From a virus (lineage: Duplodnaviria > Heunggongvirae > Uroviricota > Caudoviricetes), in IMG/VR virus record IMGVR_UViG_2700989400_000006, positions 1 through 25,248 of that record: a stretch of 25,248 nucleotides of DNA. One strand, 5' to 3'. Shown in pieces: positions 6,828-23,609 of this stretch (positions within the stretch are counted from its first letter, which is position 1; each line of letters starts with the position of its first letter). The notes under the pieces were generated by a model. That model saw only the letters and a program-made list of their open reading frames with translations. It had not been told where the DNA came from and ran no database searches. A program made the translations under genes and the position numbers.

Positions 6828-7913
6828 TTAGCTCCTGTTCTTATCTAATTGTGCATTTCGCAATTTATCGTTCAGCACCAATATTTCACCAACTGTTTGT
6901 TCAAAACGCCCGGACTCAAGTTCAACCCCAATCGTGCGACGCCCCAATCCCATTGCTGCTTTTATTGTTGCCCCCGATCCCATAAAAAAATCCGCAACCA
7001 CATCCCCCGGACGACTGCTGGCAGAAATTATCTGACGCAACATATCCGCCGGTTTTTCGCAGGGATGCTTACCCGGATAATACTGTACGGGCTTATGCGT
7101 CCAGACATCCGTATAAGGAACGGCGGCCGATACAGAAAAATAACGCCGCAGAGATTTGTATTCCTCAAGCAGACTGGCATATTGCCGGTTCAGTTCACTG
7201 TATGTGCTGACCAGCAGTTGGTGTGGCGTTGCCAGCTCCCCACGCTGGTGTTTTTCTTCTGCAACACGCGCGAACAGCGCCTGCAGTTTTCTGTAATCAG
7301 CTTCGTTCGGTAACTGCCACTGACTGGTACCAAACCAGTGCGACACCATGTTTTTCTTTCCGGTGGCTTCCGCTATCTGTTTGGACGTTATTCCCAGTGA
7401 TTCACGCGCATCACGAAAGTAAAAAATCAGCGGGGCCATGACGTGTTGTTTAAGCTCGCGCTCCTTTGCCGCATAGCCGGCATTTTTTGGCTGATATGGC
7501 CACTGATAATGTTCGGCAAACAGAATGCGCTCTGTTGCCGGGAAATACGCCCGCAGGCTTTCTTTGTTGCACCCGTTCCAGCGTCCGGACGGCTTCGCCC
7601 AGATAATGTGGTTCAGCACATTAAAGCGCTCACGCATCATGATTTCGATATCAGATGCCAGGCGATGACCACAAAACAGGTAAAGACTTCCGGCAGGCTT
7701 CAGTACCCGCCAGAACTGAGCCAGACACTGGTCCAGCCATTTTAGGTAATCATCGTCGCCCTTCCACTGGTTATCCCAGCCCTCGGGCTTCACTTTAAAA
7801 TATGGCGGGTCTGTGACTATAAGATCGACAGAGTTTTCCGATAAGGTCTGGATAAATTCCAGGCAATCAGTGTTGATTAACTCACAACTGGATATTTTTA
7901 CAGTATTAGCCAT
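6828..7913 (-). CDS. DNA methyltransferase, N6-adenine/N4-cytosine class
   Basis: 361-aa ORF with the catalytic DPPY motif (LIVTDPPYF) near the N-terminus and a glycine-rich AdoMet-binding motif near the C-terminus (FFMGSGAT); this order is typical of the N6_N4 methyltransferase family. Confidence 0.9.
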   Translation of the reverse strand: MANTVKISSCELINTDCLEFIQTLSENSVDLIVTDPPYFKVKPEGWDNQWKGDDDYLKWLDQCLAQFWRVLKPAGSLYLFCGHRLASDIEIMMRERFNVLNHIIWAKPSGRWNGCNKESLRAYFPATERILFAEHYQWPYQPKNAGYAAKERELKQHVMAPLIFYFRDARESLGITSKQIAEATGKKNMVSHWFGTSQWQLPNEADYRKLQALFARVAEEKHQRGELATPHQLLVSTYSELNRQYASLLEEYKSLRRYFSVSAAVPYTDVWTHKPVQYYPGKHPCEKPADMLRQIISASSRPGDVVADFFMGSGATIKAAMGLGRRTIGVELESGRFEQTVGEILVLNDKLRNAQLDKNRS

Positions 7914-12226: not shown

Positions 12227-12382
12227 TTACTCCTCAGGTTCGTAAGCTGTGAAGACAGCGACCTCCGTCTGGCCGGTTCGGATTCGTACCTCGCAGAGGT
12301 CTTTCCTCGTTACCAGTGCCGTCACTATGACGGTTAAACAGATGACGATCAGGGCGATTAACATCGCCTTTTGCTGCTTCAT
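12227..12382 (-). CDS. hokD: Hok/Gef-family type I toxin (51 aa)
   Basis: MKQQKAMLIALIVICLTVIVTALVTRKDLCEVRIRTGQTEVAVFTAYEPEE matches my recollection of E. coli HokD (RelF). A perfect 9-bp hairpin (12198-12219) follows the stop, consistent with the folded 3' end of hok-type mRNAs. Confidence 0.9.
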   Translation of the reverse strand: MKQQKAMLIALIVICLTVIVTALVTRKDLCEVRIRTGQTEVAVFTAYEPEE

Positions 12383-12439
12383 AGCCTGCTTCTCCTTGCC
12401 TTTCGGCACGTAAGAGGCTAACCTAGATTTGCCGTTCAT
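12227..12439 (-). CDS. Mok-like upstream reading frame containing hok (70 aa, same frame)
   Basis: In-frame N-terminal extension MNGKSRLASYVPKGKEKQA preceding the Hok methionine, as in chromosomal mokC/hokC pairs (from memory). Confidence 0.5.
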   Translation of the reverse strand: MNGKSRLASYVPKGKEKQAMKQQKAMLIALIVICLTVIVTALVTRKDLCEVRIRTGQTEVAVFTAYEPEE

Positions 12440-12949
12440 AGATTGAGCCTCAGATTAATGTTAAACGTCTTGCAGGACGCGTAATGTTAACTGGGGCTTT
12501 TCTCTATCTGCCTTTGGTGTTCATGCCTGAGGCAGATAGCCTCAAGCACCCGCAGCAATTCTACTTAACTCCCGTCACCTCGCCAATATAAAATCAATCA
12601 GAAAGGCGATCCGTAAGAACAACAGCAAGACAATAAATTGCCATTACAGCCGCAATAGCTAGCGCACATTTGAGAACCAGCACGACAACCTCCTGTATTG
12701 GACGTACACCAATTCTGATAAATATGAGGCTGTCTCATCATTGATTCAATATAACTATTGGGTATAGTTTCTGTGATTTTGTTCTGTAGAAATGGAACAC
12801 AACAACCAGTCACCACCAGCACTTCTTTAAATACGCCAAGTCCGACGCAAGCTAACCTTCTAGTCCGCTTTGAGCGAAGAGCGGACATTGCTAACAGCAT
12901 CCTGTGTGAATCATTACGATCAAATCGATGACTAGATAAGTACAAACCG

Positions 12950-12978
12950 GAAAAGGGGCCTACTGACGAAGTAGGCCT
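12950..12978 (-). terminator. Intrinsic terminator of the three-gene cassette
   Basis: Minus-strand RNA: GGCCUACU-UCGUC-AGUAGGCC (perfect 8-bp stem) followed by CCUUUUCCGGUUU, starting 17 nt after the stop of the last cassette gene. Confidence 0.6.
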
Positions 12979-12994
12979 GAGTTCCTTATATATT

Positions 12995-13651
12995 TCACAA
13001 AATTCTGAGAGTTTCTAAGATGGATAAAAGTGTTGGAAGCTGACTCTCTCTCACACGGAATCTACCCGTCCTAGATAATTCCGTTTCAATTCCGTTAACG
13101 AAGAAATGTACGGAATCAAAAACGGCCGAACTATTCATGTATTTATTCTGATAAATTTCTTGGAGATTCTTTGAGCTTACTATTTTTGTCTTTGCTAAAG
13201 TAAAAGGATCAACAGAGATATTAGATAGAGACATGGATTTTATCTTGATGTCAAAGCCCTCAGAAAGACCATTTACAATTTTTCTCAGATCAAATTCTAC
13301 TGGTCTCAAGCCACTATCTTCACCAAATAGTTTTTGCACCATAGTATAAGGCACTTTCATACTTAATGGAGGATTAGTGGCATATAGTATGATTTTTTTC
13401 CCTTGTCTGACGCCAAAGTCCACATTTAAGTAAGTTGCTATTTCAACCTCTGAACGCTCGCCATTAGCATATTCTAAGCTTTGCTTGCTAATGCTTCTCA
13501 TGGTAAATCTTAGTTTAAGCACTTCAGAGTTATTAATGATTTGAAAACCATATCCTTTATCTTCATCATAGAGGTTGTCATTTACTTTATGTAATAACTC
13601 ACTTTTAGTTATATCCTTTTCTGCTTTATAAATTTTTACCTTTATCATCAT
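12995..13651 (-). CDS. Cassette gene C: uncharacterized protein (~218 aa), third gene of the AT-rich three-gene operon
   Basis: Start chosen at ATG 13651 (MMIKVKIYKAEKD...) with AGGAGG 6 nt upstream, overlapping the TGA of gene B as ATGA; the track start 13678 is TTG. No motif I recognise. Confidence 0.75.
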   Translation of the reverse strand: MMIKVKIYKAEKDITKSELLHKVNDNLYDEDKGYGFQIINNSEVLKLRFTMRSISKQSLEYANGERSEVEIATYLNVDFGVRQGKKIILYATNPPLSMKVPYTMVQKLFGEDSGLRPVEFDLRKIVNGLSEGFDIKIKSMSLSNISVDPFTLAKTKIVSSKNLQEIYQNKYMNSSAVFDSVHFFVNGIETELSRTGRFRVRESQLPTLLSILETLRIL

Positions 13652-14895
13652 CCAGCCTCCTGATTCAAAGTCTCGCAAGACATAGCTTTCGTTACTGGGT
13701 ATCGCTTGGTATGCTCTTCGATAATAAAGTCATTAATCAAAAATATTTTATCTTCTAATTGTTTCATGACTTGATCAAAGTCTGCGTCACTGAGTTTTTC
13801 TCTCTCTGCGGATGCAGAGTTGCTTTCTTTGTATAACGCTCTGAATTTTATATTTTTCCCAAGATATTTATCATCGAAACTAAGTTCAAAAGTTATAGTA
13901 TGATTCTTAACTACTGAGGAAAATGACTTCCATCGAATTAAGCTTCGATAAAACCCATCACTGCACAGTTCCTTAATTTGAGGTGCGTTCACTAATGATA
14001 GGCCATCATACGCGGCATTGTTAATGTTAAAAGTTAGGTTTTCATCATCGTCAGATGCCATTTCCTGATTATTAATGTCATCATCATTTTCGTTATCTGT
14101 AGAAGGTGAAATCTTGTTTAATAACTCTTGTGTTTCTTCGTTATTATTTCCTTCGAGATTATCTCCATTAATATCCAGAGATGTTTTTATTCTGCTTACT
14201 CTAACCTTTTCAAGACCAGCATATTCAAGTCCTGTTTTTTTATAATTTCCATCAAAATCATAAAGATGAACAGCAAAAATATTCCTAAGATCTGTATCAA
14301 CGATACTTGATAAATCTATTTCGTTGACAACTATGTTGTTACAAACTGTTGATGAATATGTATCAATTATTTGCTTGAGAATTTCTGAAATGCGTGGCGT
14401 ATAGTTATATCTTACTGAAACATATCCTTTTTTTACTATAAAAACTATACTCCCACTGTACAATTTTTTCTGCTGAAACTTACCCCTTCTAAAATCAAAC
14501 TCAGTATAATCAATAGATATATGATAGGTTTGCAAGCCTGAGTAATGATCAATTTTCTCATGCCCTAGCAACTTGGGTCTATTTTCTTTCACTTTGTTTA
14601 CAACGTCATAGAGTTTCTCTATATCAAATTCTTCATATATACGTTTTACTGAGAAGACGTCTTGGCTGGGTTTGGTTGCCAGTTTATCTTGTACTTCTCT
14701 GATGTGATTATATGAAAATGGCAGGTCTGATAATTTTTCTATCAATACCTCTTTTGATAAGTTAGATGGGAAAATTATCCCTCTATTGAAGGCGATTTTC
14801 CTTAATGTAACATCTGTGATTTTTGCACTGTTAGAGTGGAGGGCGGTATAAATGTCACTTTCGTTTGAAAACAACGTAGCTTGATATTTATTCAT
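13648..14895 (-). CDS. Cassette gene B: uncharacterized protein (415 aa) with a central acidic low-complexity linker
   Basis: ATG 14895 lies 10 nt after the gene A stop with AGGAG in between. Residues ~240-285 (NNNEETQELLNKISPSTDNENDDDINNQEMASDDDENL) form an Asn/Asp/Glu-rich linker between two halves. No Walker A/B or other motif I recognise. Confidence 0.8.
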   Translation of the reverse strand: MNKYQATLFSNESDIYTALHSNSAKITDVTLRKIAFNRGIIFPSNLSKEVLIEKLSDLPFSYNHIREVQDKLATKPSQDVFSVKRIYEEFDIEKLYDVVNKVKENRPKLLGHEKIDHYSGLQTYHISIDYTEFDFRRGKFQQKKLYSGSIVFIVKKGYVSVRYNYTPRISEILKQIIDTYSSTVCNNIVVNEIDLSSIVDTDLRNIFAVHLYDFDGNYKKTGLEYAGLEKVRVSRIKTSLDINGDNLEGNNNEETQELLNKISPSTDNENDDDINNQEMASDDDENLTFNINNAAYDGLSLVNAPQIKELCSDGFYRSLIRWKSFSSVVKNHTITFELSFDDKYLGKNIKFRALYKESNSASAEREKLSDADFDQVMKQLEDKIFLINDFIIEEHTKRYPVTKAMSCETLNQEAG

Positions 14896-14905
14896 GTCAT
14901 ACTCC

Positions 14906-15997
14906 TTATGAAAAGTGACATTTTCTATTCACCTGCTTGCTGGCAACCTGGTACTCAAATATAGATAGCTTTTGATTAACAAAAGGAATGGATACTATTT
15001 TTTCCTTTAACGTTTCTATATGAGATTGAGTGAAAGAATATATTCCTATGTAATCATTAATGGCGGATTGCAAATGAATGCTTGAGTGTGATGAGAACGG
15101 AGTTATAACAAATATTTTGTTAAATTGATTGAGTAATTGATAGTTAAATATATACTCTAAAAGAAATATAAAGTGGTTACTGGAATCAATCTCTTCCTTC
15201 CAGAATATATTCAATATTTTATTTCTTATTCTATCGCCACCATCATTTCTAATATATTCGTGTTCATATGAGTAAAAAATCATCCCAGATGTTATCATTT
15301 CAATTGTGGCTGGAAGGATTTTCCCTTTCGTTGCTATTTTATTATGTTTGTCAGGGTAAAAATATGTACAGTTCTCTATCTCAGGAATTTTTTGCCATAA
15401 CATATTTGTTTCTTGTGTTACTTTGTCAGTAATTCCTCTTCTAGTCTCGATGTGTTCTGTAACATCTAGTAAAAATCTGATCATAGTTGGGTCAAAAACG
15501 GCAATCACAGAGTTCTCTGGAAAATCATAACTTGCTGTGGCTGCTCCATTTAATTTCTCAATTAAATCAGAGTCATATTTATTGTCATGATTATATATAA
15601 AAAGTAGGCCGTTAACTTGATATTTCTCATTTGTGCTGTCAACAAATAGACGCCGCCACTCAGGACTTCTTGGCGCGCAAGCTACCTGTTGTGATAAACT
15701 TCGTACAGTGTTCAATATTGATTTTGTACCGTCAAGCGTGCTGGCACAATAAGATTTTAAATCTGTTTGTATATACTGAGTTATATCTGAATAAGGATCT
15801 TTATATTTGAAGACTACATCCGTAGGATGAGTTTTTTTTGGGTTTTCAGATAAAAGTTGTTTAGCGTTTAGATGAGATCTCAAACAACAGTCCCAACTTA
15901 TATCCGTTGTATTTTGGGTTTTCCAGCCTAACTCATCAAAAATTCTACTGGAAATGATACCTGCAATCTCATCAATATTCTTAGTTTCGCCGCCCAC
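14906..15997 (-). CDS. Cassette gene A: uncharacterized protein (363 aa), first gene of the operon
   Basis: GTG start at 15997 preceded by GGAGGA; no in-frame ATG upstream. The N-terminal ~90 aa carry a pattern compatible with, but not diagnostic of, a PD-(D/E)xK nuclease core (FDE ... HPTDVVF ... IQTDLK). Confidence 0.7.
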   Translation of the reverse strand: MGGETKNIDEIAGIISSRIFDELGWKTQNTTDISWDCCLRSHLNAKQLLSENPKKTHPTDVVFKYKDPYSDITQYIQTDLKSYCASTLDGTKSILNTVRSLSQQVACAPRSPEWRRLFVDSTNEKYQVNGLLFIYNHDNKYDSDLIEKLNGAATASYDFPENSVIAVFDPTMIRFLLDVTEHIETRRGITDKVTQETNMLWQKIPEIENCTYFYPDKHNKIATKGKILPATIEMITSGMIFYSYEHEYIRNDGGDRIRNKILNIFWKEEIDSSNHFIFLLEYIFNYQLLNQFNKIFVITPFSSHSSIHLQSAINDYIGIYSFTQSHIETLKEKIVSIPFVNQKLSIFEYQVASKQVNRKCHFS

Positions 15998-17892: not shown

Positions 17893-18318
17893 TCAATGCA
17901 CAGCCACAATATTTCCTGCAGGGCCACCACGATTCATCTGGTTGAAACCAGCGATCGCCACTGCGACAAAATCATCAGCGTCTCTCACCAGTCGTTCCCG
18001 CGTCTCCACTAGTTCCCGAAAATATGCTGAGCTATGACTGCGCATTCGGGCCACCAGCAGAGGTGGCATTGCTTTTTCGATAGCTGGTAACAACGCCTGA
18101 ATTTTTTTAACCGCATCAGGGGTGTCTTTCTCCACCCAGCGGAAAATTTTCTGAGTATTGCGAGCCAGGGCTTCCGGATGGTTGTCGTCATACAGTTCCG
18201 GGAACGTCATTCCCAGCTCGAAATACGCTTTGGTAATTTTCGCAGCCGGTACTTTTTCGCCGTCCGGATGCGCCCAGGCATTCATCGCCATGCGGATGTG
18301 TTCATGCTTGATTTTCAT
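17893..18318 (-). CDS. YdaT-like protein (CII-position gene of Rac-type immunity regions)
   Basis: 141-aa ORF whose start overlaps the Cro-like gene stop; size and position match Rac YdaT as I recall; no sequence check possible. Confidence 0.5.
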   Translation of the reverse strand: MKIKHEHIRMAMNAWAHPDGEKVPAAKITKAYFELGMTFPELYDDNHPEALARNTQKIFRWVEKDTPDAVKKIQALLPAIEKAMPPLLVARMRSHSSAYFRELVETRERLVRDADDFVAVAIAGFNQMNRGGPAGNIVAVH

Positions 18319-18569
18319 GAATCAACTCCCATCAGCTTTTTCGTAGTAGTTTTATTCCTGCCAATAGTTAAAATTGCATCGGCAGAAAATAATCCGTTTG
18401 ATGCAAGAGCGATTTTTTCAGCGTAATTTGTTTCGCCGGTATATTCTGTGCGAGGCAATTTTCCGTTATCCATCCATTTATAGATTGCTCTTTGGCTGAC
18501 ACCACAAACGTCGGCCACAACAGCAACGCGAACAGTTTTGATTACATCTTCAAGTGTTTTCTGGTTCAT
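18315..18569 (-). CDS. Cro-like HTH regulator (YdaS/DicC-position)
   Basis: 84-aa ORF divergent from the repressor gene; HTH segment VCGVSQRAIYKWMDNGKLP. Confidence 0.65.
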   Translation of the reverse strand: MNQKTLEDVIKTVRVAVVADVCGVSQRAIYKWMDNGKLPRTEYTGETNYAEKIALASNGLFSADAILTIGRNKTTTKKLMGVDS

Positions 18570-18648
18570 ATCACCCTCACAGTGTGAACTTTAAGTACAT
18601 GCTATAACAGAACTGACAGTACATTCAAGAGCGAATATCATTGAACTT
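18570..18648. promoter_or_regulatory. Divergent promoter/operator region between the Cro-like gene and the repressor gene
   Basis: 79-bp intergenic region between divergent start codons; contains two direct AGTACAT motifs (18594-18600, 18618-18624); the same motif family recurs downstream of the repressor gene at 19144-19184. Confidence 0.5.
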
Positions 18649-19068
18649 ATGGTTCATGAAGATAAAGCGCGTAAAGAGTTCGCCAGTAGGCTTGCGCTAG
18701 CCTGTGAAAACGCTGGTTATGAACAACATGGAAGGCAGGCAGAAATTGCCCGTCGAATGAAATTAACACCAAAAGCGGTTAGCAAATGGTTTAATGGCGA
18801 AACAATTCCTCGCCGGGAGAAATTAAGGGAATTAGCAACACTAATAGGAACAACACCAACCTATCTTTTGGGAGAGGATACAGAAGAAAGTGGACAGGTA
18901 CGTTTCTATCAGGAGTTAAATCCAAGACAAAAAATCATCATTGACCTTCTGGACGAGCTCCCTGACAGTGAGACAGATGAACTTTTAAAAACTCTTGAAG
19001 AGAAAAAACAGAAGTACAATGCAATTTACGAAGAGTTAGCACGAAAGAAAAAACAAAAAGCCTCTTAA
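18649..19068 (+). CDS. Prophage repressor, XRE-family HTH (DicA/RacR-type, no S24 peptidase domain)
   Basis: 139-aa ORF with N-terminal HTH (RQAEIARRMKLTPKAVSKWFNGE) and charged helical C-terminus; too short for a LexA-like autocleavage domain; divergent from the Cro-like gene. Confidence 0.8.
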   Translation: MVHEDKARKEFASRLALACENAGYEQHGRQAEIARRMKLTPKAVSKWFNGETIPRREKLRELATLIGTTPTYLLGEDTEESGQVRFYQELNPRQKIIIDLLDELPDSETDELLKTLEEKKQKYNAIYEELARKKKQKAS

Positions 19069-19362
19069 ACCAGCATAAATCCGGTAGCGCCTTCCTCCGG
19101 GTTTGTGCTTCACTTTATCCCATCTCATTTTTTTACACACAAAATGTACTAAAAGTACTTTACAACAATGAACGCAAAGTACATTATATACCTGCCACCC
19201 ACCCCGCCCCACAGAATGCAGGGTAATACTTCGAGTTACCAGGCAGTGGTCAGGGGTTAAGTAGCCAGCCCGAGGCGTAAGAACATGACGGCAGGGTTCA
19301 ACTTTAACTATGCAGCAGGTTTTTGTTCCGCCACCCCGGCGTTAAGGGGAAATGAGGTCAGC

Positions 19363-19515
19363 ATGGATACTATCGATCTTGGCAACAGCGAATCTCTGGT
19401 ATGTGGCGTGTTCCCCAACCAGGACGGTACGTTCACCGCGATGACATATACCAAAAGCAAAACGTTTAAAACCGAAACTGGCGCGCATCGCTGGTTAGCC
19501 AGAAACACTGACTGA
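19363..19515 (+). CDS. Small phage protein (YdfA-like, ~50 aa)
   Basis: Start chosen at ATG 19363 (MDTIDLGNSESLVCGVFPNQDGTF...) with GAGGT upstream; resembles the small first gene of the Qin dicB operon as I recall. Confidence 0.45.
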   Translation: MDTIDLGNSESLVCGVFPNQDGTFTAMTYTKSKTFKTETGAHRWLARNTD

Positions 19516-19526
19516 TGAGGTTGACT

Positions 19527-19916
19527 ATGGAATTTAAAGAGTTACCAAAAGAAATCCAAGAAATTGCAGCACATACACTTCGTCAACGTCTGAACGAAGT
19601 TGCATTAGAAGCTGAAACGAAAAAAGACATTGATAATATGGCTCGTAATGTGCGCGATGCGTTTACCGGACTGTATTCTGTTTCTGTTGAGGGCAATAAC
19701 ATTCCTGACGAACAGGAAGAGAGTACAGACCCCCACAAATTCTGGAAATCTGTAGAGGTCATTGCAAAAGCCAAACTACTGGAACTTAACAACTTATATC
19801 ATCGTGAGAATGATGGTCGTCAATCTTTGCATCATCAGGGAGTCGCCACCCTGATAGCTCTAACGAAAGAGCAAGGCGAATATCATCCAGTGGCATTAAA
19901 CGACACTGTGAAATAG
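19527..19916 (+). CDS. Hypothetical phage protein (129 aa)
   Basis: Start chosen at ATG 19527 (MEFKELPKEIQ...) with GAGG 6 nt upstream; the track start 19515 overlaps the previous stop. Confidence 0.5.
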   Translation: MEFKELPKEIQEIAAHTLRQRLNEVALEAETKKDIDNMARNVRDAFTGLYSVSVEGNNIPDEQEESTDPHKFWKSVEVIAKAKLLELNNLYHRENDGRQSLHHQGVATLIALTKEQGEYHPVALNDTVK

Positions 19917-20437
19917 TCCATCCATGTTTACGGGATAGATAAAGATATATCGCTTCGAAACCATCGACATGGTTTGGATAGCCTTCCTCAGCAGCAAGGT
20001 TATCCCCAAAACATTCAAGAATATAATTTAAACGCGCTGTTTAATAATGAATCTTCCAGCGAGTCTGATTTAGTTTGCTGACCATTTTAATTTTATCCTC
20101 CATTGAGGTTACTGGTTGAGAATGGAGACCACACGTGACAGCGCGTGGTCGTGCGCCGGACACGGATAAGAATCCGGCACAAACAGTTTACTGAAAGGAT
20201 ATATCCCTGAAAAGTCAGGGCATAACGCGAAAGCGCACGGCGAAGTCATTCCTCCCTTTGTTGTGTACTACTGACATCTTCGTCTGTGCGCTTCCGGTTG
20301 TGGCAATCCGCGAAATGGCGCGGCGGTAAGTATGGCGGGGTTATTCCTTCCCCGTTGAGGACACCGGGTTGTCAGGTTGACCATACGCTTAAGTGGCAAC
20401 CCCGCTGCAACGCCCTCTGTTATCAATTTTCTGGTGA

Positions 20438-20495
20438 CGTTTGGCGGTATCAGTTTTACTCCGTGACTGCTCTGCCGCCCTTTTTAAAGTGAATT
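20438..20495 (+). ncRNA. dicF: DicF small RNA (ftsZ-targeting sRNA of the dicB operon)
   Basis: TTTCTGGTGACGTTTGGCGGTATCAGTTTTACTCCGTGACTGCTCTGCCGCCC followed by TTTTT matches the 53-nt DicF sequence as I recall it, including the terminal GC-rich stem and U-tail; it sits upstream of dicB as in Qin. Confidence 0.8.
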
Positions 20496-20668: not shown

Positions 20669-20851
20669 ATGGAAACGTTATTACCAAACGTCAATACGTC
20701 TGAAGGTTGTTTTGAAATTGGTGTCAGAATCAGTAACCCTGTATTTACTGAAGATGCCATTAATAAGAGAAAACACGAACGGGAGCTATTAAATCAAATA
20801 TGCATTGTTTCAATGCTGGCCCGTTTACGCCTGATGCAAAAAGGACGCTGA
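20669..20851 (+). CDS. dicB: Cell-division inhibitor DicB
   Basis: 60-aa ORF METLLPNVNTSEGCFEIGVRISNPVFTEDAINKRKHERELLNQICIVSMLARLRLMQKGR closely matches my recollection of E. coli DicB; GAGGA upstream of the ATG. Confidence 0.85.
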   Translation: METLLPNVNTSEGCFEIGVRISNPVFTEDAINKRKHERELLNQICIVSMLARLRLMQKGR

Positions 20852-21137: not shown

Positions 21138-23609
21138 ATGAGTAAAGTCTTTATTTGCGCCGCCATTCCGGACGAACAGGCAATAAAGGAAGAAGGTGCA
21201 GTCGCTGTAGCCACTGCCATTGAAGCCGGCGACGAACGCCGCGCCCGAGCCAAATTTACCTGGCAATTCCTGGAGCAATATCCGGCTGCTCAGGACTGCG
21301 CTTATAAATTTCTTGTCTGCGAGGATAAACCCGGCATGCCCCGCCCTGCCATCGACTCCTGGGATACCGAATATATGCTGGAAAACCGCTGGGATGAGGA
21401 AGGCGCTTCCTTTGTCCCGGTCGAACCAGAATCCGATCCGATGAACGTCAATTTTGACAAGCTGTCCCCTGAAGTACAGAACGCGGTCCTGGTTAAGTTC
21501 GACACATGTGAAAACATCACCGTTGATATGGTTATTAGCGCACAGGAATTGTTGCAGGAAGACATGGCAACATTCGACGGACATATCGTTGAAGCGTTGA
21601 TGAAAATGCCAGAAGTTAACGCCATGTATCCGGAGCTTAAGTTGCACGCCATTGGGTGGGTTAAGCATAAATGTATTCCTGGTGCTAAATGGCCCGAAAT
21701 TCAGGCAGAGATGCGCATCTGGAAAAAACGTCGCGAAGGTGAACGCAAGGAAACCGGAAAATACACGTCTGTTGTTGATCTCGCCCGCGCCAGAGCCAAT
21801 CAACAGTACACTGACAATTCAACAGGAAAAATCAGCCCGGTCATTGCTGCCACTCATCGCGAATACAAGCAGACATGGAAAACACTGGATGACGAACTGG
21901 CCTACGCTCTCTGGCCTGGTGATGTGGATGCCGGAAACATTGACGGCAGCATCCATCGCTGGGCAAAAAATGAAGTTATCGACAACGACCGCGAAGACTG
22001 GAAGCGTATCTCGGCATCAATGCGCAAACAGCCTGATGCCCTTCGCTACGACCGCCAGACTATTTTTGGCCTTGTCCGTGAACGTCCGATCGACATTCAC
22101 AAAGACCCTGTGACACTGAACAAATACATTACTGAATACCTGACTACAAAGGGCGTGTTTGAAGATGAAGGAAGAAATCAGAGCGCAACTGATACTCTCT
22201 CGTCGCCAGTACCAGAAACTGATGCAGTGGAAACGGCAATTCCGGACAACGAAAAAACCGAATGCAAAGTGGAAGTCGAACCATCTGTAGAGCGTGAGGG
22301 GCCGTTCTACTTCCTCTTCACCGACAAGGATGGCGAAAAATATGGTCGCGCAAACAAACTTTCTGGTCTGAATAAGGCGCTGACTGCAGGGGCTACTGAA
22401 ATCACGAAAGAAGAATATTTTGCCCGTAAAAACGGTACATACTCAGGTTCACAACAAAATACTGGTGCATCTGACACGACCGCACAACCAGAGCCGGTAA
22501 AAGTTACCGCTGACGAAGTAAACAAAATTATGCAGGCAGCCAATATCAGCCAGCCTGACGCCGATAAGTTGCTTGCTGTATCACGTGGTGAATTTGTTGC
22601 AGGGATTAGCGACCCGAATGATCCGAAATGGGTGAAGGGGATTGAAACCCGCGATTCAGTGAATCAGAACCAGCAAGAAACGGAACAGAACGACCAGAAA
22701 GCAGAACAAAACAGCCCAAATGCGTTACAAAACGAGCCAGAAACGAAACAACCTGAGCCAGTAGCGCAACAGGAAGCGGAAAAAGTCTGCACCGCATGCG
22801 GTCAGACCGGCGGCGGCAACTGCCCTGATTGTGGTGCGGTGATGGGCGACGCAACATACCAGGAAACATTCGATGAAGAGAATCAGGTTGAAGTTCAGGA
22901 AAATGATCCGGAGGAAATGGAAGGCGCTGAACATCCACACAAGGAGAATGCTGGCAGCGCTCAGGACCACGCCAGCAATAATGAAACTGGCGAGACGGCA
23001 GATCCCTTAATTGCGGTGAACGGTCATCACGTTATCACATCCACCAGCAGGACGTGTGACCATCTAATGATCGACCTTGAAACCATGGGAAAAAATCCTG
23101 ATGCCCCGATTATCTCAATAGGTGCAATATTTTTCGATCCGCAAACCGGAGATATGGGACCGGAATTTAGTAAGACTATCGATCTGGAAACTGCTGGCGG
23201 AGTCATTGATCGGGACACCATTAAATGGTGGCTTAAGCAATCACGCGAAGCGCAATCTGCCATTATGACCGATGAAATCCCGTTAGATGATGCACTGTTA
23301 CAATTGCGGGAATTTATCGACGAAAACTCCGGTGAATTTTTTGTTCAGGTCTGGGGAAATGGAGCCAACTTCGACAACACGATTTTGCGCCGTTCATACG
23401 AACGGCAGGGGATCCCCTGCCCGTGGCGTTACTACAACGATCGCGATGTACGCACAATCGTTGAGCTGGGGAAAGCCATAGACTTCGATGCCAGAACGGC
23501 TATTCCATTCGAAGGTGAGCGCCATAATGCACTTGATGACGCCCGTTACCAGGCAAAATACGTTTCAGTTATCTGGCAAAAACTGATCCCGAGTCAGGCT
23601 GATTCTTAA
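21138..23609 (+). CDS. Large phage exonuclease (823 aa) with central CxxC-CxxC zinc ribbon and C-terminal DEDDh-type 3'-5' exonuclease domain
   Basis: C-terminal motifs MIDLETMG (Exo I), WGNGANFDNTIL (Exo II) and HNALDDARYQAKY (Exo III, His type); central CTACGQTGGGNCPDCG; acidic/Gln-rich linker before it. The antisense ORF 21111..21803 is rejected. Confidence 0.75.
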   Translation: MSKVFICAAIPDEQAIKEEGAVAVATAIEAGDERRARAKFTWQFLEQYPAAQDCAYKFLVCEDKPGMPRPAIDSWDTEYMLENRWDEEGASFVPVEPESDPMNVNFDKLSPEVQNAVLVKFDTCENITVDMVISAQELLQEDMATFDGHIVEALMKMPEVNAMYPELKLHAIGWVKHKCIPGAKWPEIQAEMRIWKKRREGERKETGKYTSVVDLARARANQQYTDNSTGKISPVIAATHREYKQTWKTLDDELAYALWPGDVDAGNIDGSIHRWAKNEVIDNDREDWKRISASMRKQPDALRYDRQTIFGLVRERPIDIHKDPVTLNKYITEYLTTKGVFEDEGRNQSATDTLSSPVPETDAVETAIPDNEKTECKVEVEPSVEREGPFYFLFTDKDGEKYGRANKLSGLNKALTAGATEITKEEYFARKNGTYSGSQQNTGASDTTAQPEPVKVTADEVNKIMQAANISQPDADKLLAVSRGEFVAGISDPNDPKWVKGIETRDSVNQNQQETEQNDQKAEQNSPNALQNEPETKQPEPVAQQEAEKVCTACGQTGGGNCPDCGAVMGDATYQETFDEENQVEVQENDPEEMEGAEHPHKENAGSAQDHASNNETGETADPLIAVNGHHVITSTSRTCDHLMIDLETMGKNPDAPIISIGAIFFDPQTGDMGPEFSKTIDLETAGGVIDRDTIKWWLKQSREAQSAIMTDEIPLDDALLQLREFIDENSGEFFVQVWGNGANFDNTILRRSYERQGIPCPWRYYNDRDVRTIVELGKAIDFDARTAIPFEGERHNALDDARYQAKYVSVIWQKLIPSQADS

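Follow-up and report, generated by a model that had tools for sequence, protein, structure and literature searches.

The immunity region of phage HK022 has been described by Oberto et al. (1989) and Carlson and Little (1993), as cited in PMC8053113, and according to the latter, which refers to Carlson and Little (1993), the HK022 repressor CI is reported to bind adjacent operators at OR and OL cooperatively and to form loops between them. Another repressor, DicA, is known from the Qin prophage of Escherichia coli K-12, and its operator Oc has the sequence TTGTTAGTCATAACTAACAA (PMC3441716). DicA belongs together with RacR to the Gifsy-type repressor class, which is widespread in prophages of E. 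coli and Salmonella and has LexA-controlled antirepressors (Lemire et al., 2011, PMC3121763). Repressors of the DicA class act independently of RecA and are controlled by antirepressors (PMC3121763, PMC10448788), and for DicA itself the antirepressor Rem and a bistable flipping have been shown (PMC10448788). Heat and urea are further inducing conditions known for DicA.

Here, we analyzed a stretch of 25,248 nucleotides from a Caudoviricetes record (IMGVR_UViG_2700989400_000006; hereafter the window), in which a short repressor gene is flanked on both sides by copies of the heptamer AGTACAT and related words. The prophage occupies the Qin locus next to rspB. Its immunity region is 99.5% identical to that of Tritos, a prophage of the AIEC strain LF82 that is a plaque-forming phage, and about 1047 of 5426 complete E. 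coli genomes contain the module region. The dicF-dicB-ydfD region is 90.6% identical to its counterpart in K-12 Qin, and dicB is annotated in Tritos as well as in the prophage of strain PCN061, which carries IS insertions. We found no paper that mentions the repressor accession or that links HK022 specificity with the control of dicB. Judged from the DNA sequence, the AGTACAT copies are, with a probability of about 0.87, half-sites of five HK022-type operators, which would guard both early promoters of the prophage (Table 1).

Table 1. Features of the immunity region and the early-left operon; positions refer to the window.
Feature	Position	Strand	Description
Predicted O_R1 equivalent, GTGAACTTTAAGTACAT	18584..18600		20.5 bits; ungapped alignment to HK022 oR1
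Predicted O_R2 equivalent, CAGAACTGACAGTACAT	18608..18624		15.1 bits; aligns to HK022 oR2 GGAACTGATAGTACA
Predicted O_R3 equivalent, TTGAACTTATGGTTCAT	18641..18657		20.7 bits, top match of the window
Predicted O_L2 equivalent, ATGTACTAAAAGTACTT	19144..19160		19.4 bits; aligns to HK022 oL (L001 1262-1276)
Predicted O_L1 equivalent, ATGAACGCAAAGTACAT	19168..19184		13.0 bits; aligns to HK022 oL (L001 1286-1300)
Repressor gene, 139 aa	18649..19068	+	HK022 CI-type HTH N-terminal domain, disordered linker, DicA-like helical tail
cro-like gene, 84 aa	18315..18569	-	Transcribed divergently from the repressor; shares 58% identity with HK022 Cro; PHROG 35 transcriptional repressor
Candidate pR-like promoter of the cro-like operon	18601..18628	-	-35 TTGAAT 18628-18623, -10 TATAGC 18606-18601
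Candidate repressor-gene promoter (PRM-like)	18613..18641	+	CTGACA-17 nt-TATCAT; promoter scan 10/12
Hairpin, likely terminator	19072..19109	+	Directly 3' of the repressor stop codon; RNA fold
Predicted pL-like promoter (dicBp analogue)	19159..19187	+	TTTACA-17 nt-CATTAT; promoter scan 9/12
ydfA-like gene (DUF1391)	19363..19515	+	Pfam 7e-28; first gene of the operon with predicted O_L control
DicF sRNA	20429..20480	+	Rfam RF00039, 76.7 bits, E 1.4e-15; same operon, downstream
dicB, 60 aa	20669..20851	+	ORF translation METLLPNVNTSEGCF...; same operon, downstream

The initial annotation had placed AGTACAT copies on the plus strand at 18594-18600 and 18618-18624, an imperfect palindrome ATGTACT-aaa-AGTACTT at 19144-19160 and a further copy, AAGTACAT, at 19177-19184; all these positions were confirmed when the sequence was re-read. 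The copies between the divergent genes had been regarded as direct repeats. They are present, but not as standalone repeats; they represent the right halves of pseudo-palindromes with left halves of the GAACT type (GTGAACT-TTA-AGTACAT, CAGAACT-GAC-AGTACAT and ATGAACG-CAA-AGTACAT). Counted as a bare 7-mer across the window, the motif is not significantly enriched (5 copies versus 2.27 expected, with 10 of 100 shuffles reaching 5), whereas its clustering is significant, since four copies fall within 631 bp, a density reached in none of 2000 dinucleotide shuffles. A sixth 7-mer-like copy in the window (8794) is at chance level. The actual unit is a 17-bp pseudo-palindrome, ATGWACT-N3-AGTWCAT (aTGwACT-N3-AGTwCAt), which is found with two or fewer mismatches at five sites compared to 0.32 expected (five were reached in 0 of 1000 shuffles), and all five fall inside the two regulatory regions. 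The 7-mer was dropped as the unit, because its window-wide count is not significant and the 17-bp pseudo-palindrome covers all copies and adds a fifth site.

A scoring matrix trained only on the six annotated operators of HK022 and HK75 gave these five sites the highest scores in the 25-kb window (13.0-20.7 bits, with O_L1 and O_R2 as the weaker matches). The 99.9th percentile of the window lies at 2.2 bits and 0.20 matches of at least 13 bits are expected per shuffle; single matches at this level occur in 18% of the shuffles. In strain PCN061, of which 39 kb were scanned with the matrix, the same five are the sole strong matches. The best match outside the regulatory regions, 10.0 bits at 23332-23348 inside the recE-like gene, was rejected as a sixth site, because 1.0 match of at least 10 bits is expected per shuffle and the match is thus at chance level. 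The sequence at 23332-23348 is conserved in Tritos and PCN061.

The similarity to HK022 and HK75 (GenBank X16093 and HM173637) extends beyond the sites themselves. The cro-like gene, the intergenic region (approximately 72% to HK022) and the repressor gene over its first third, up to about codon 54, show 71-72% DNA identity to these phages, and all five sites align ungapped to the annotated oR1, oR2, oR3, oL2 and oL1, as do the annotated pR and pL hexamers. HK022 and the window share the operator word, the site length, the core site number (3 + 2), the spacings of 24 and 33 bp at oR and 24 bp at oL, the placement with respect to the pR and pL hexamers, and an oR3 that contains the repressor start codon. 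Three cores in the window are identical or nearly identical to those of HK022 oL1, oR3 and oR2; the 15-bp core of O_R1 is identical to that of HK022 oL1 and the core of O_R3 to that of HK022 oR3. The differences concern the surroundings. The early-left operon of HK022 consists of nun-cIII-kil, whereas the one in the window comprises ydfA, DicF, dicB and recE-like genes. No counterpart of HK022 putL was seen in the window, and the 175-nt leader at 19194-19365 folds no better than shuffled sequences (z = -0.23) and gave nothing in Rfam that would point to a put-like structured RNA. At the position equivalent to HK022 oL3, 53 bp upstream of oL2, the window scores -29.9 bits versus 9.0 in HK022, and the best match at the place of OFR, downstream of cro and approximately 270 bp from oR1, reaches -0.8 bits versus 19.7 in HK022. 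Several loci with long-form repressors are likewise without a strong oL3, so that we propose no link between the missing sites and the short tail.

Between the divergent genes, two motif copies had been noticed initially and the third oR site at 18641-18657 had been overlooked. O_R1 is situated just downstream of the pR-like -10 and covers the expected transcription start of the cro-like gene; among near-identical alleles its sole variable base is the central spacer base (A, T or G). O_R2, 24 bp away from it, lies within the spacer and -35 of the pR-like promoter, and O_R3, 33 bp from O_R2, contains the repressor start codon (ATG 18649), with which an N-terminus MV(H/Q) begins that is common to all enterobacterial homologues compared. 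On the other side of the repressor gene, O_L2 adjoins the -35 of the early-left promoter and extends into it, while O_L1 lies 24 bp from O_L2 over the spacer and the -10. O_L1 is the weakest of the five sites, having G for T at the usually conserved position 7. The pR-like hexamers are positional orthologues of the pR -35 and -10 annotated in X16093, and the pL-like hexamers correspond in the same way to HK022 pL (-35 TTTACA, -10 CATCAT in X16093). The pR-like promoter was not reported by the promoter scan, because it matches the consensus at only 8 of 12 positions. The PRM-like candidate promoter would yield a leaderless or near-leaderless repressor mRNA, and no Shine-Dalgarno sequence precedes the repressor ATG. 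Its predicted -35 is located inside O_R2, which makes a lambda-like positive autoregulation doubtful. Transcription is predicted to start at about 18592-18595 on the minus strand for the cro-like operon, at about 19193-19195 on the plus strand for the early-left operon and at 18645-18649 on the plus strand for the repressor gene. Behind the repressor gene, the hairpin listed in Table 1 is the sole structure predicted for 19050-19145 (-19.2 kcal/mol, z = -4.0, with 0 of 200 shuffles as stable). Owing to its interrupted T-run it escaped a simple terminator scan, and it likely separates repressor transcription from the early-left operon as a terminator.

The repressor itself combines parts that are otherwise found in different proteins. 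Its N-terminal domain shares 44 of 75 residues (59%) with HK022 CI and 21 of 29 in the HTH segment, and recognition helix 3 is near-identical (TPKAVSKWFNGE versus TPKAISKWFNGE in HK022 CI, i.e. PKAVSKWFNGE versus PKAISKWFNGE). Only HTH_3 (1.8e-9, residues 29-73) and HTH_31 were above the Pfam threshold; the S24 family (PF00717), which is carried by long-form homologues, was not detected in it, in agreement with the earlier statement that a LexA-like cleavage domain is lacking. HK022 CI, in contrast, has 235 aa including an S24 peptidase/oligomerization domain. Residues 82-139 resemble K-12 DicA at the equivalent C-terminal position (BLASTP, 32% over 50 residues, E 9e-8). An AF2 model of moderate confidence has five helices in the N-terminal domain and two in the C-terminal part, connected by a disordered linker (77-87). 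In a Foldseek search against the PDB this model gave generic XRE-HTH matches only, none at E 1e-3 or better, and a PDB sequence search returned only the N-terminal domain of P22 C2 (E 0.006). In a farther-reaching reading, to which we give somewhat less than an even chance together with the consequences outlined at the end, the repressor would be a natural chimera, in which HK022 operator specificity is coupled to an SOS-blind tail of the DicA/Gifsy type. HK022 CI is described as dependent on cooperative binding, a property that in lambda-type repressors resides in the C-terminal domain. As this domain is replaced in the 139-aa repressor, an affinity and cooperativity like those of HK022 CI at the 24-bp spacing are a prediction only.

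The initial annotation had proposed that one repressor controls two promoters, a view to which the oR/oL positional orthology with HK022 and HK75, the matrix results and the conserved architecture all lend support. We predict that the 139-aa repressor binds these 17-bp sites as a dimer through its HK022 CI-type HTH. Occupation of O_R1 and O_R2 would cover the -10 and start as well as the spacer and -35 of the leftward cro-like promoter, and occupation of O_L2 and O_L1 would do so for the edge of the -35, the spacer and the -10 of the promoter directed rightward (TTTACA-17-CATTAT), which presumably drives ydfA, DicF, dicB and the recE-like gene. RNA polymerase would thereby be excluded and both early operons would be silent. 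O_R3 likely serves in negative autoregulation and/or allows the Cro-like protein, which is expected to recognize these operators as well, to repress the repressor gene, and the hairpin probably ends repressor transcripts ahead of the dicB-type operon.

The sites are conserved beyond this prophage. In an alignment of 10 loci, the half-site columns are conserved to 94% compared to 71% for the other intergenic columns. Within the sites, positions G3, A5 and C6 as well as G12, T13 and C15 are near-invariant. In a wider set of 28 loci from other species, belonging to Enterobacterales, Pasteurellaceae and Pseudomonas, helix 3 (.TPKAVSKWFN) is kept in nearly all, with one variant, and the same operator word is found alongside; the 24/33-spaced trio at the repressor start is present in 22 of 27 loci and the 24-bp pair downstream in 21 of 27. 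In the short-form relatives from Salmonella (62-65% identity), a higBA module is inserted and the oL pair lies approximately 900 bp farther downstream behind it. As the pair nevertheless marks the beginning of the early-left operon there, the sites go with the promoter rather than with the repressor gene. These data bear on the possibility that the sites are relics of an HK022-like ancestor, not all of which are used by the hybrid repressor, so that for instance the Cro-like protein alone or the oR sites alone would still function, and that the dicB-type operon is silenced otherwise, e.g. by H-NS or termination. The swapped C-terminal domain, the missing oL3 and OFR and the mismatch of O_L1 would fit such decay, and many Qin-like prophages are defective, as the IS insertions in PCN061 illustrate. 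Nevertheless, we regard it as improbable, because the 3+2 set is retained in short-form relatives from E. coli and Salmonella at 62-89% protein identity, including the insertion-shifted oL pair that still sits on its promoter, because the region is present in almost a fifth of the E. coli genomes and in a plaque-forming, repressor-expressing phage, and because the allelic variation is placed at the non-contacted center of O_R1.

Regarding induction, the initial annotation had suggested that it probably does not occur via RecA-mediated autocleavage. This seems well founded; the S24 peptidase domain is replaced by a DicA/Gifsy-type helical tail, which argues against derepression by RecA-stimulated self-cleavage, and Tritos was not induced by the SOS-inducing treatments tested. 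It was not induced by ciprofloxacin, its production decreased slightly with trimethoprim, and in the lysogen this repressor is expressed at a level 24-fold above the prophage background (PMC9928086). By analogy, derepression of the operators may occur via an antirepressor encoded elsewhere and/or via stochastic, bistable flipping between repressor and Cro. The searches for antirepressors and LexA boxes covered the window, which holds only part of the prophage. Within it, neither a homologue of the Qin antirepressor Rem nor one of the TumE-like gene found near the Salmonella relatives was detected, the latter gene having no LexA box, and scans of the neighboring ORFs with PHROG, Pfam and PADLOC revealed no antirepressor. 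A perfect LexA box CTGT-N8-ACAG was not found in the window and one-mismatch boxes are at chance level; the best-looking candidate, AACTGGATATTTTTACAGTA at 7886-7905, falls within a methyltransferase gene, at its 5' end. Instead of an antirepressor or flipping, a metalloprotease of the ImmA/IrrE type could inactivate the repressor, as for ImmR and DdrO. Tritos is reported to express an ImmA/IrrE-like metallopeptidase gene, LF82_280 (PMC9928086), and DdrO and ImmR are among the weak fold matches. These matches are, however, non-significant and confined to the generic HTH, no ImmA/IrrE-like protein was present among the window ORFs scanned (Pfam gave nothing for 12598-15997), and the tail shares homology with DicA, for which the Rem antirepressor and bistable flipping are established (PMC10448788). 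We consider this route slightly less probable still than the relic scenario.

The comparison with K-12 Qin yields a divided picture. The initial annotation had likened the arrangement to that of DicA, which holds for the organization and the C-terminal tail, but not for the operator sequence. Both have the same chromosomal locus, order of genes and targeted operon (ydfA, DicF, dicB), the repressors are short and non-cleavable, and in both cases the repressor gene diverges from a Cro-like gene and precedes a PL-like promoter, with operators located in each of these two regions. However, the DNA-binding domain and the Cro-like protein differ, and the repressors are only 24% identical overall. 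One might assume from the gene order (cro-like, repressor, ydfA, DicF, dicB), the position by rspB and the shared tail that the sites are operators of the K-12 DicA type and the region is the Qin dicA-dicC-dicBp system. We judge this very improbable, given that Oc (TTGTTAGTCATAACTAACAA) bears no likeness to the 17-bp unit, the N-terminal domains are poorly related and homology to the Qin DNA does not set in again before 19325, past the early-left promoter. Furthermore, the HK022 matrix finds no site in the dicA-dicC and dicBp regions of K-12, and the only match in L004 (9.0 bits) lies elsewhere. As the K-12 DicA operator is unrelated in sequence, the closest relative is HK022 and not DicA. The Gifsy-type repressors GfoR, GtgR and GfhR are likened to the window repressor by their features, i.e. 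approximately 136-139 aa, an N-terminal HTH and the lack of the Ala-Gly/Ser-Lys cleavage apparatus, but these systems have a LexA-controlled antirepressor, while none could be tied to the repressor within the window. The logic is also that of lambda: the repressor and cro genes are divergent, OR is tripartite, the operators are 17-bp pseudo-palindromes spaced 24 bp apart, OR and OL flank the repressor gene, and the repressor mRNA is leaderless, as is probable here as well. The lambda operators are, however, unrelated in sequence, oR2 and oR3 are 33 bp apart in the window versus 23 in lambda, OL has two sites only and the repressor is without the cleavable C-terminal domain of lambda. Finally, the notion that the motif copies are chance products of AT-rich promoter DNA without a specific function, which could appeal to the unenriched 7-mer count and the frequency of single strong matches in shuffles, is effectively refuted by the number and clustering of the sites, by the 24/33/24 spacing identical to HK022 and by an arrangement kept ungapped in most of the 28 loci while the flanking intergenic DNA diverges.

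Altogether, an operator code, a predicted promoter layout and a predicted HK022 specificity can be assigned to the repressor that would silence the dicBF cell-division inhibitors in this Qin variant, and operators of K-12 DicA are not transferable to strains that carry it. The switch is of a well-understood kind and the general understanding of such switches is unchanged; the locus does provide a clean natural example in which the DNA-binding and regulatory domains of a phage repressor were exchanged while the operator architecture stayed fixed. If the operators function as proposed, the tail would have to provide the cooperativity between paired sites for which HK022 CI relies on its S24 domain, and it would then represent a minimal oligomerization module that acts at the same 24-bp spacing although the looping sites oL3 and OFR are missing. 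Moreover, if the repressor binds as predicted, the roughly one fifth of E. coli genomes with the module would be immune to HK022-type phages, and the CI or Cro of an incoming or co-resident phage of this type could act in trans on the host-toxic dicBF operon, either repressing or derepressing it.

The initial annotation had proposed copies of AGTACAT on both sides of the repressor gene as candidate operators. The plus-strand copies at 18594-18600 and 18618-18624 are indeed present, as are ATGTACT-aaa-AGTACTT at 19144-19160 and AAGTACAT at 19177-19184. However, the bare 7-mer is clustered but not enriched over the whole window: five copies compare with 2.27 expected, a number reached or exceeded in 10 of 100 shuffles, and only the presence of four copies within 631 bp is exceptional (0 of 2000 dinucleotide-preserving shuffles). 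The copies described as direct were correctly positioned, but each belongs to a 17-bp pseudo-palindrome, in which it is the right half and a GAACT-type sequence the left half. When the full unit ATGWACT-N3-AGTWCAT is searched with up to two mismatches, five matches are found against 0.32 expected, which none of 1000 shuffles reached, and all five are confined to the two regulatory regions.

Features of the immunity region and of the adjacent operon, with the five predicted operator sites
Feature	Position	Strand	Sequence or remark
Cro-like HTH gene	18315-18569	-	84 aa
O_R1	18584-18600		GTGAACTTTAAGTACAT
O_R2	18608-18624		CAGAACTGACAGTACAT
O_R3	18641-18657		TTGAACTTATGGTTCAT; overlooked in the initial annotation; includes the repressor ATG (18649)
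Repressor gene	18649-19068	+	139-aa HTH_3 protein
O_L2	19144-19160		ATGTACTAAAAGTACTT
O_L1	19168-19184		ATGAACGCAAAGTACAT
ydfA (DUF1391)	19363-19515	+	downstream of repressor
DicF	20429-20480	+	Rfam
dicB	20669-20851	+	

In a distant DNA search against a phage collection, a match to the phages HK022 and HK75 at 71-72% identity extended from the cro-like gene through the intergenic region to about codon 54 of the repressor gene, i.e. over its first third. Operators and promoters are annotated in the records of both phages. In the HK022 record, oR1 and oR3 are annotated as TGAACTTATGGTTCA, oR2 as GGAACTGATAGTACA and the two oL sites as TGTACTATTGGTACT and TGAACTTTAAGTACA. The oR and oL regions align with the window without gaps, the five window sites lie exactly over the five HK022 sites, and the centre-to-centre spacing is the same, with 24 and 33 bp for the oR sites and 24 bp for the oL sites. 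The promoters correspond as well: the pL hexamers TTTACA/CATCAT of HK022 (X16093) have their counterparts in TTTACA (19159-19164) and CATTAT (19182-19187), a promoter independently picked up by a promoter scan, and the annotated pR hexamers in TTGAAT (18628-18623) and TATAGC (18606-18601) on the minus strand.

A position weight matrix, for which the six annotated HK022/HK75 sites were the sole input and no window site was used, ranked the five sites 1 to 5 among approximately 25,000 positions, with 20.7, 20.5, 19.4, 15.1 and 13.0 bits; the 99.9th percentile of the window is 2.2 bits. Since shuffled windows contain 0.20 matches of at least 13 bits and 1.0 match of at least 10 bits, the five sites stand far above chance, which is not the case for the sixth-best match of 10.0 bits. 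This match, GTGAATTTTTTGTTCAG at 23332-23348 within the recE-like gene, was hence rejected as a further operator; phage Tritos (prophage 3 of the AIEC strain LF82) and strain PCN061 conserve it. Over 39 kb of PCN061, which comprise the prophage and flanking host DNA, only these five sites and the equivalent of 23332-23348 exceed 10 bits. The auxiliary HK022 operators, searched in the window with the HK022 matrix, are absent: oL3 (53 bp from oL2) scores 9.0 bits in HK022, whereas the window has -29.9 bits at that position, and OFR (approximately 270 bp from oR1) scores 19.7 bits, against a best window score of -0.8 bits in the stretch downstream of the cro-like gene. A strong oL3 is also missing from several loci with long repressors found in a species scan, hence we do not conclude on a link between the exchange of the repressor tail and the loss of oL3.

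The operators are conserved well beyond these phages. In an ungapped set of ten loci (the window, HK022, HK75, two Klebsiella phages, a Citrobacter and a Providencia phage, two Salmonella loci with short repressors and a divergent E. coli one), the half-site columns are 94% conserved, compared to 76% in the spacer and outer positions of the operators and 71% in other intergenic positions. Behind the repressor gene, the Salmonella short-form loci carry an inserted higBA module, with the 24-bp pair lying approximately 900 bp further along and still heading the early-left operon; thus, the operators track the promoter and not the repressor gene. This higB/higA-like toxin-antitoxin pair, located between the repressor gene and oL/pL (L011 4553-5220, L012 4588-5255), occupies the place of rexAB in lambda. 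The species scan, which used the N-terminal domain as query and one genome per species, gave 28 loci from Enterobacterales, Pasteurellaceae and Pseudomonas. Nearly all of them kept helix 3 as.TPKAVSKWFN, with a variant in one Salmonella locus, the 24/33-spaced trio at the repressor start was found in 22 of 27 loci and the downstream 24-bp pair in 21 of 27. According to the pooled consensus a-T-G-w-A-C-t-www-a-G-T-w-C-A-t, in which G3, A5 and C6 reach approximately 98%, AGTACAT is a perfect half-site. The operator word, the trio and the PKAVSKWFN helix occur together in hosts as distant as Haemophilus, Gallibacterium and Pseudomonas. The Pasteurellaceae loci have approximately 19 bp more between the start codon and the trio upstream of it, and a spacing of 29 + 24 bp in the downstream cluster. 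In near-identical alleles, O_R1 varies at a single base, the central spacer base at 18593 (A in the window, T in Tritos, G in PCN061), consistent with a site in which this base would not be specifically contacted.

The repressor itself is, judged by its sequence, a mosaic that combines a predicted HK022-type DNA-binding specificity with a DicA-class tail. Its residues 1-75 share 44 of 75 positions with the N-terminal domain of HK022 CI, the HTH segment 21 of 29 with conservative differences, and the recognition helices read TPKAVSKWFNGE and TPKAISKWFNGE, respectively. In place of the S24 peptidase-type domain of HK022 CI, the window repressor ends with a 60-residue tail, whose counterpart in K-12 DicA is 32% identical (E 9e-8); the proposed absence of a LexA-like cleavage domain is thus borne out. 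Long database homologues (approximately 235-240 aa, with PF00717) resemble it only in the N-terminal part, which likewise argues for the mosaic; short ones, found in E. coli and Salmonella, have 138-151 aa and 62-89% identity. For some database entries (P0015, P0021) the start codons were apparently called too far upstream. All short forms recovered belong to Escherichia, Shigella and Salmonella, and the species scan contained only one, in a Shigella locus identical to the window; hence, the DicA-type tail is an exception in the family within this one-genome-per-species sample. In the AlphaFold model (mean pLDDT 81), five helices make up the N-terminal domain, residues 77-87 form a disordered linker, and two helices (92-103, 106-138) follow at the C-terminus; fold and sequence searches of the PDB with the repressor returned only generic XRE-type HTH relatives. 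The codons ATG GTT CA. (18649-18656) form the right half-site of O_R3, and every enterobacterial homologue compared keeps the MV(H/Q) N-terminus, suggesting that these bases are constrained both as codons and as an operator.

The resemblance to K-12 DicA seen in the initial annotation holds for the organisation, the target operon and the tail but not for operator specificity. The K-12 dicA-dicC intergenic region includes Oc, TTGTTAGTCATAACTAACAA, to which DicA binding was shown genetically (PMC3441716); this sequence is unrelated to the window sites, which rules them out as DicA operators, and homology to K-12 Qin restarts only at 19325, approximately 40 bp before ydfA and past promoter and operators. 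HK022 operators of such sequence and layout have been known since 1989-1993, and DicA control of dicBp as well as short non-cleavable repressors are also established. The window sites are, as far as sequence can tell, a further set of the HK022 operator family linked with a DicA-class repressor, the kind of mosaic that is typical of lambdoid phages. Our search found no literature on the repressor protein or on HK022 specificity tied to dicB control.

The cro-like gene is followed by a YdaT/CII-like and a replication-initiator gene; on the plus strand, a recE-like gene, xis and int also lie downstream of the repressor. Between ydfA and DicF, a 129-aa ORF (19527-19916, plus strand) has no Pfam or PADLOC match, and the segment 19507-20150 lacks DNA homology to K-12 Qin, which has ydfB and ydfC there. 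On the minus strand, three consecutive ORFs of 363, 415 and 227 aa without Pfam domain (12995-15997) match PADLOC Hp1, Hp2 and Hp3 (E 8e-41, 1e-10 and 4e-11) and may form a defence cluster; they are flanked by hok/sok and the replication genes, a place where Tritos has other genes. The sok antitoxin RNA (12377-12551, minus strand; Rfam RF01794, 111.7 bits) adjoins a hokD-like ORF; HokD is reported as the top-expressed Tritos moron in LF82.

The proposal that one repressor controls both promoters is supported as a prediction by HK022-type sites on the pR-like and pL-like promoters and the matching DNA-binding domain. HK022 CI shows cooperative binding at neighbouring operators of OR and OL and forms loops between the two regions (PMC8053113, citing Carlson & Little 1993). 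Repressor dimers at O_R1 and O_R2 would occlude the cro-like promoter and dimers at O_L2 and O_L1 that of the ydfA-DicF-dicB-recE operon, and O_R3 may serve negative autoregulation and/or shut-off of the repressor gene by the Cro-like protein. A candidate repressor promoter from the promoter scan, CTGACA-17-TATCAT, ends 8 nt before the ATG, which has no Shine-Dalgarno sequence, so the mRNA is probably leaderless or near-leaderless; since its -35 element sits inside O_R2, we do not claim a lambda-like positive autoregulation. Directly after the repressor stop, a strong hairpin (19072-19109; fold of 19050-19145 -19.2 kcal/mol, z = -4.0) with a T-rich, interrupted tail, unreported by a simple terminator scan, probably ends repressor transcripts ahead of the toxic dicB-type operon.

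In this class of short repressors, which includes Gifsy GfoR/GtgR, DicA and RacR, inactivation is not by cleavage but by antirepressors, usually under LexA control (PMC3121763). For K-12 Qin, an antirepressor, Rem, and a bistable DicA/DicC switch were demonstrated, and heat and urea were shown to cause derepression independently of RecA (PMC10448788). In the window, which covers part of the prophage, neither a Rem homologue or other antirepressor candidate nor a convincing LexA box was found; AACTGGATATTTTTACAGTA at 7886-7905 (one mismatch to CTGT-N8-ACAG, AT-rich centre) was rejected, because such boxes occur there at chance rate. A type II methyltransferase-like gene (6828-7913, minus strand) contains this sequence within its 5' end. 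Tritos in LF82 forms plaques and expresses its repressor gene 24-fold above prophage background; ciprofloxacin at MIC strongly induced two other LF82 prophages but no induction was reported for Tritos, and trimethoprim slightly lowered its production (PMC9928086).

The immunity region of the window is 99.5% identical to that of Tritos, the PCN061 element adjoins rspB, i.e. the Qin locus, and the 1-kb region is found at a coverage of at least 80% in 1047 of 5426 complete E. coli genomes. Tentatively, and at somewhat less than even odds, we propose that HK022-type phages and this widespread Qin variant may be cross-immune and cross-regulated, and that the DicA-type tail may serve as a minimal module for cooperativity.
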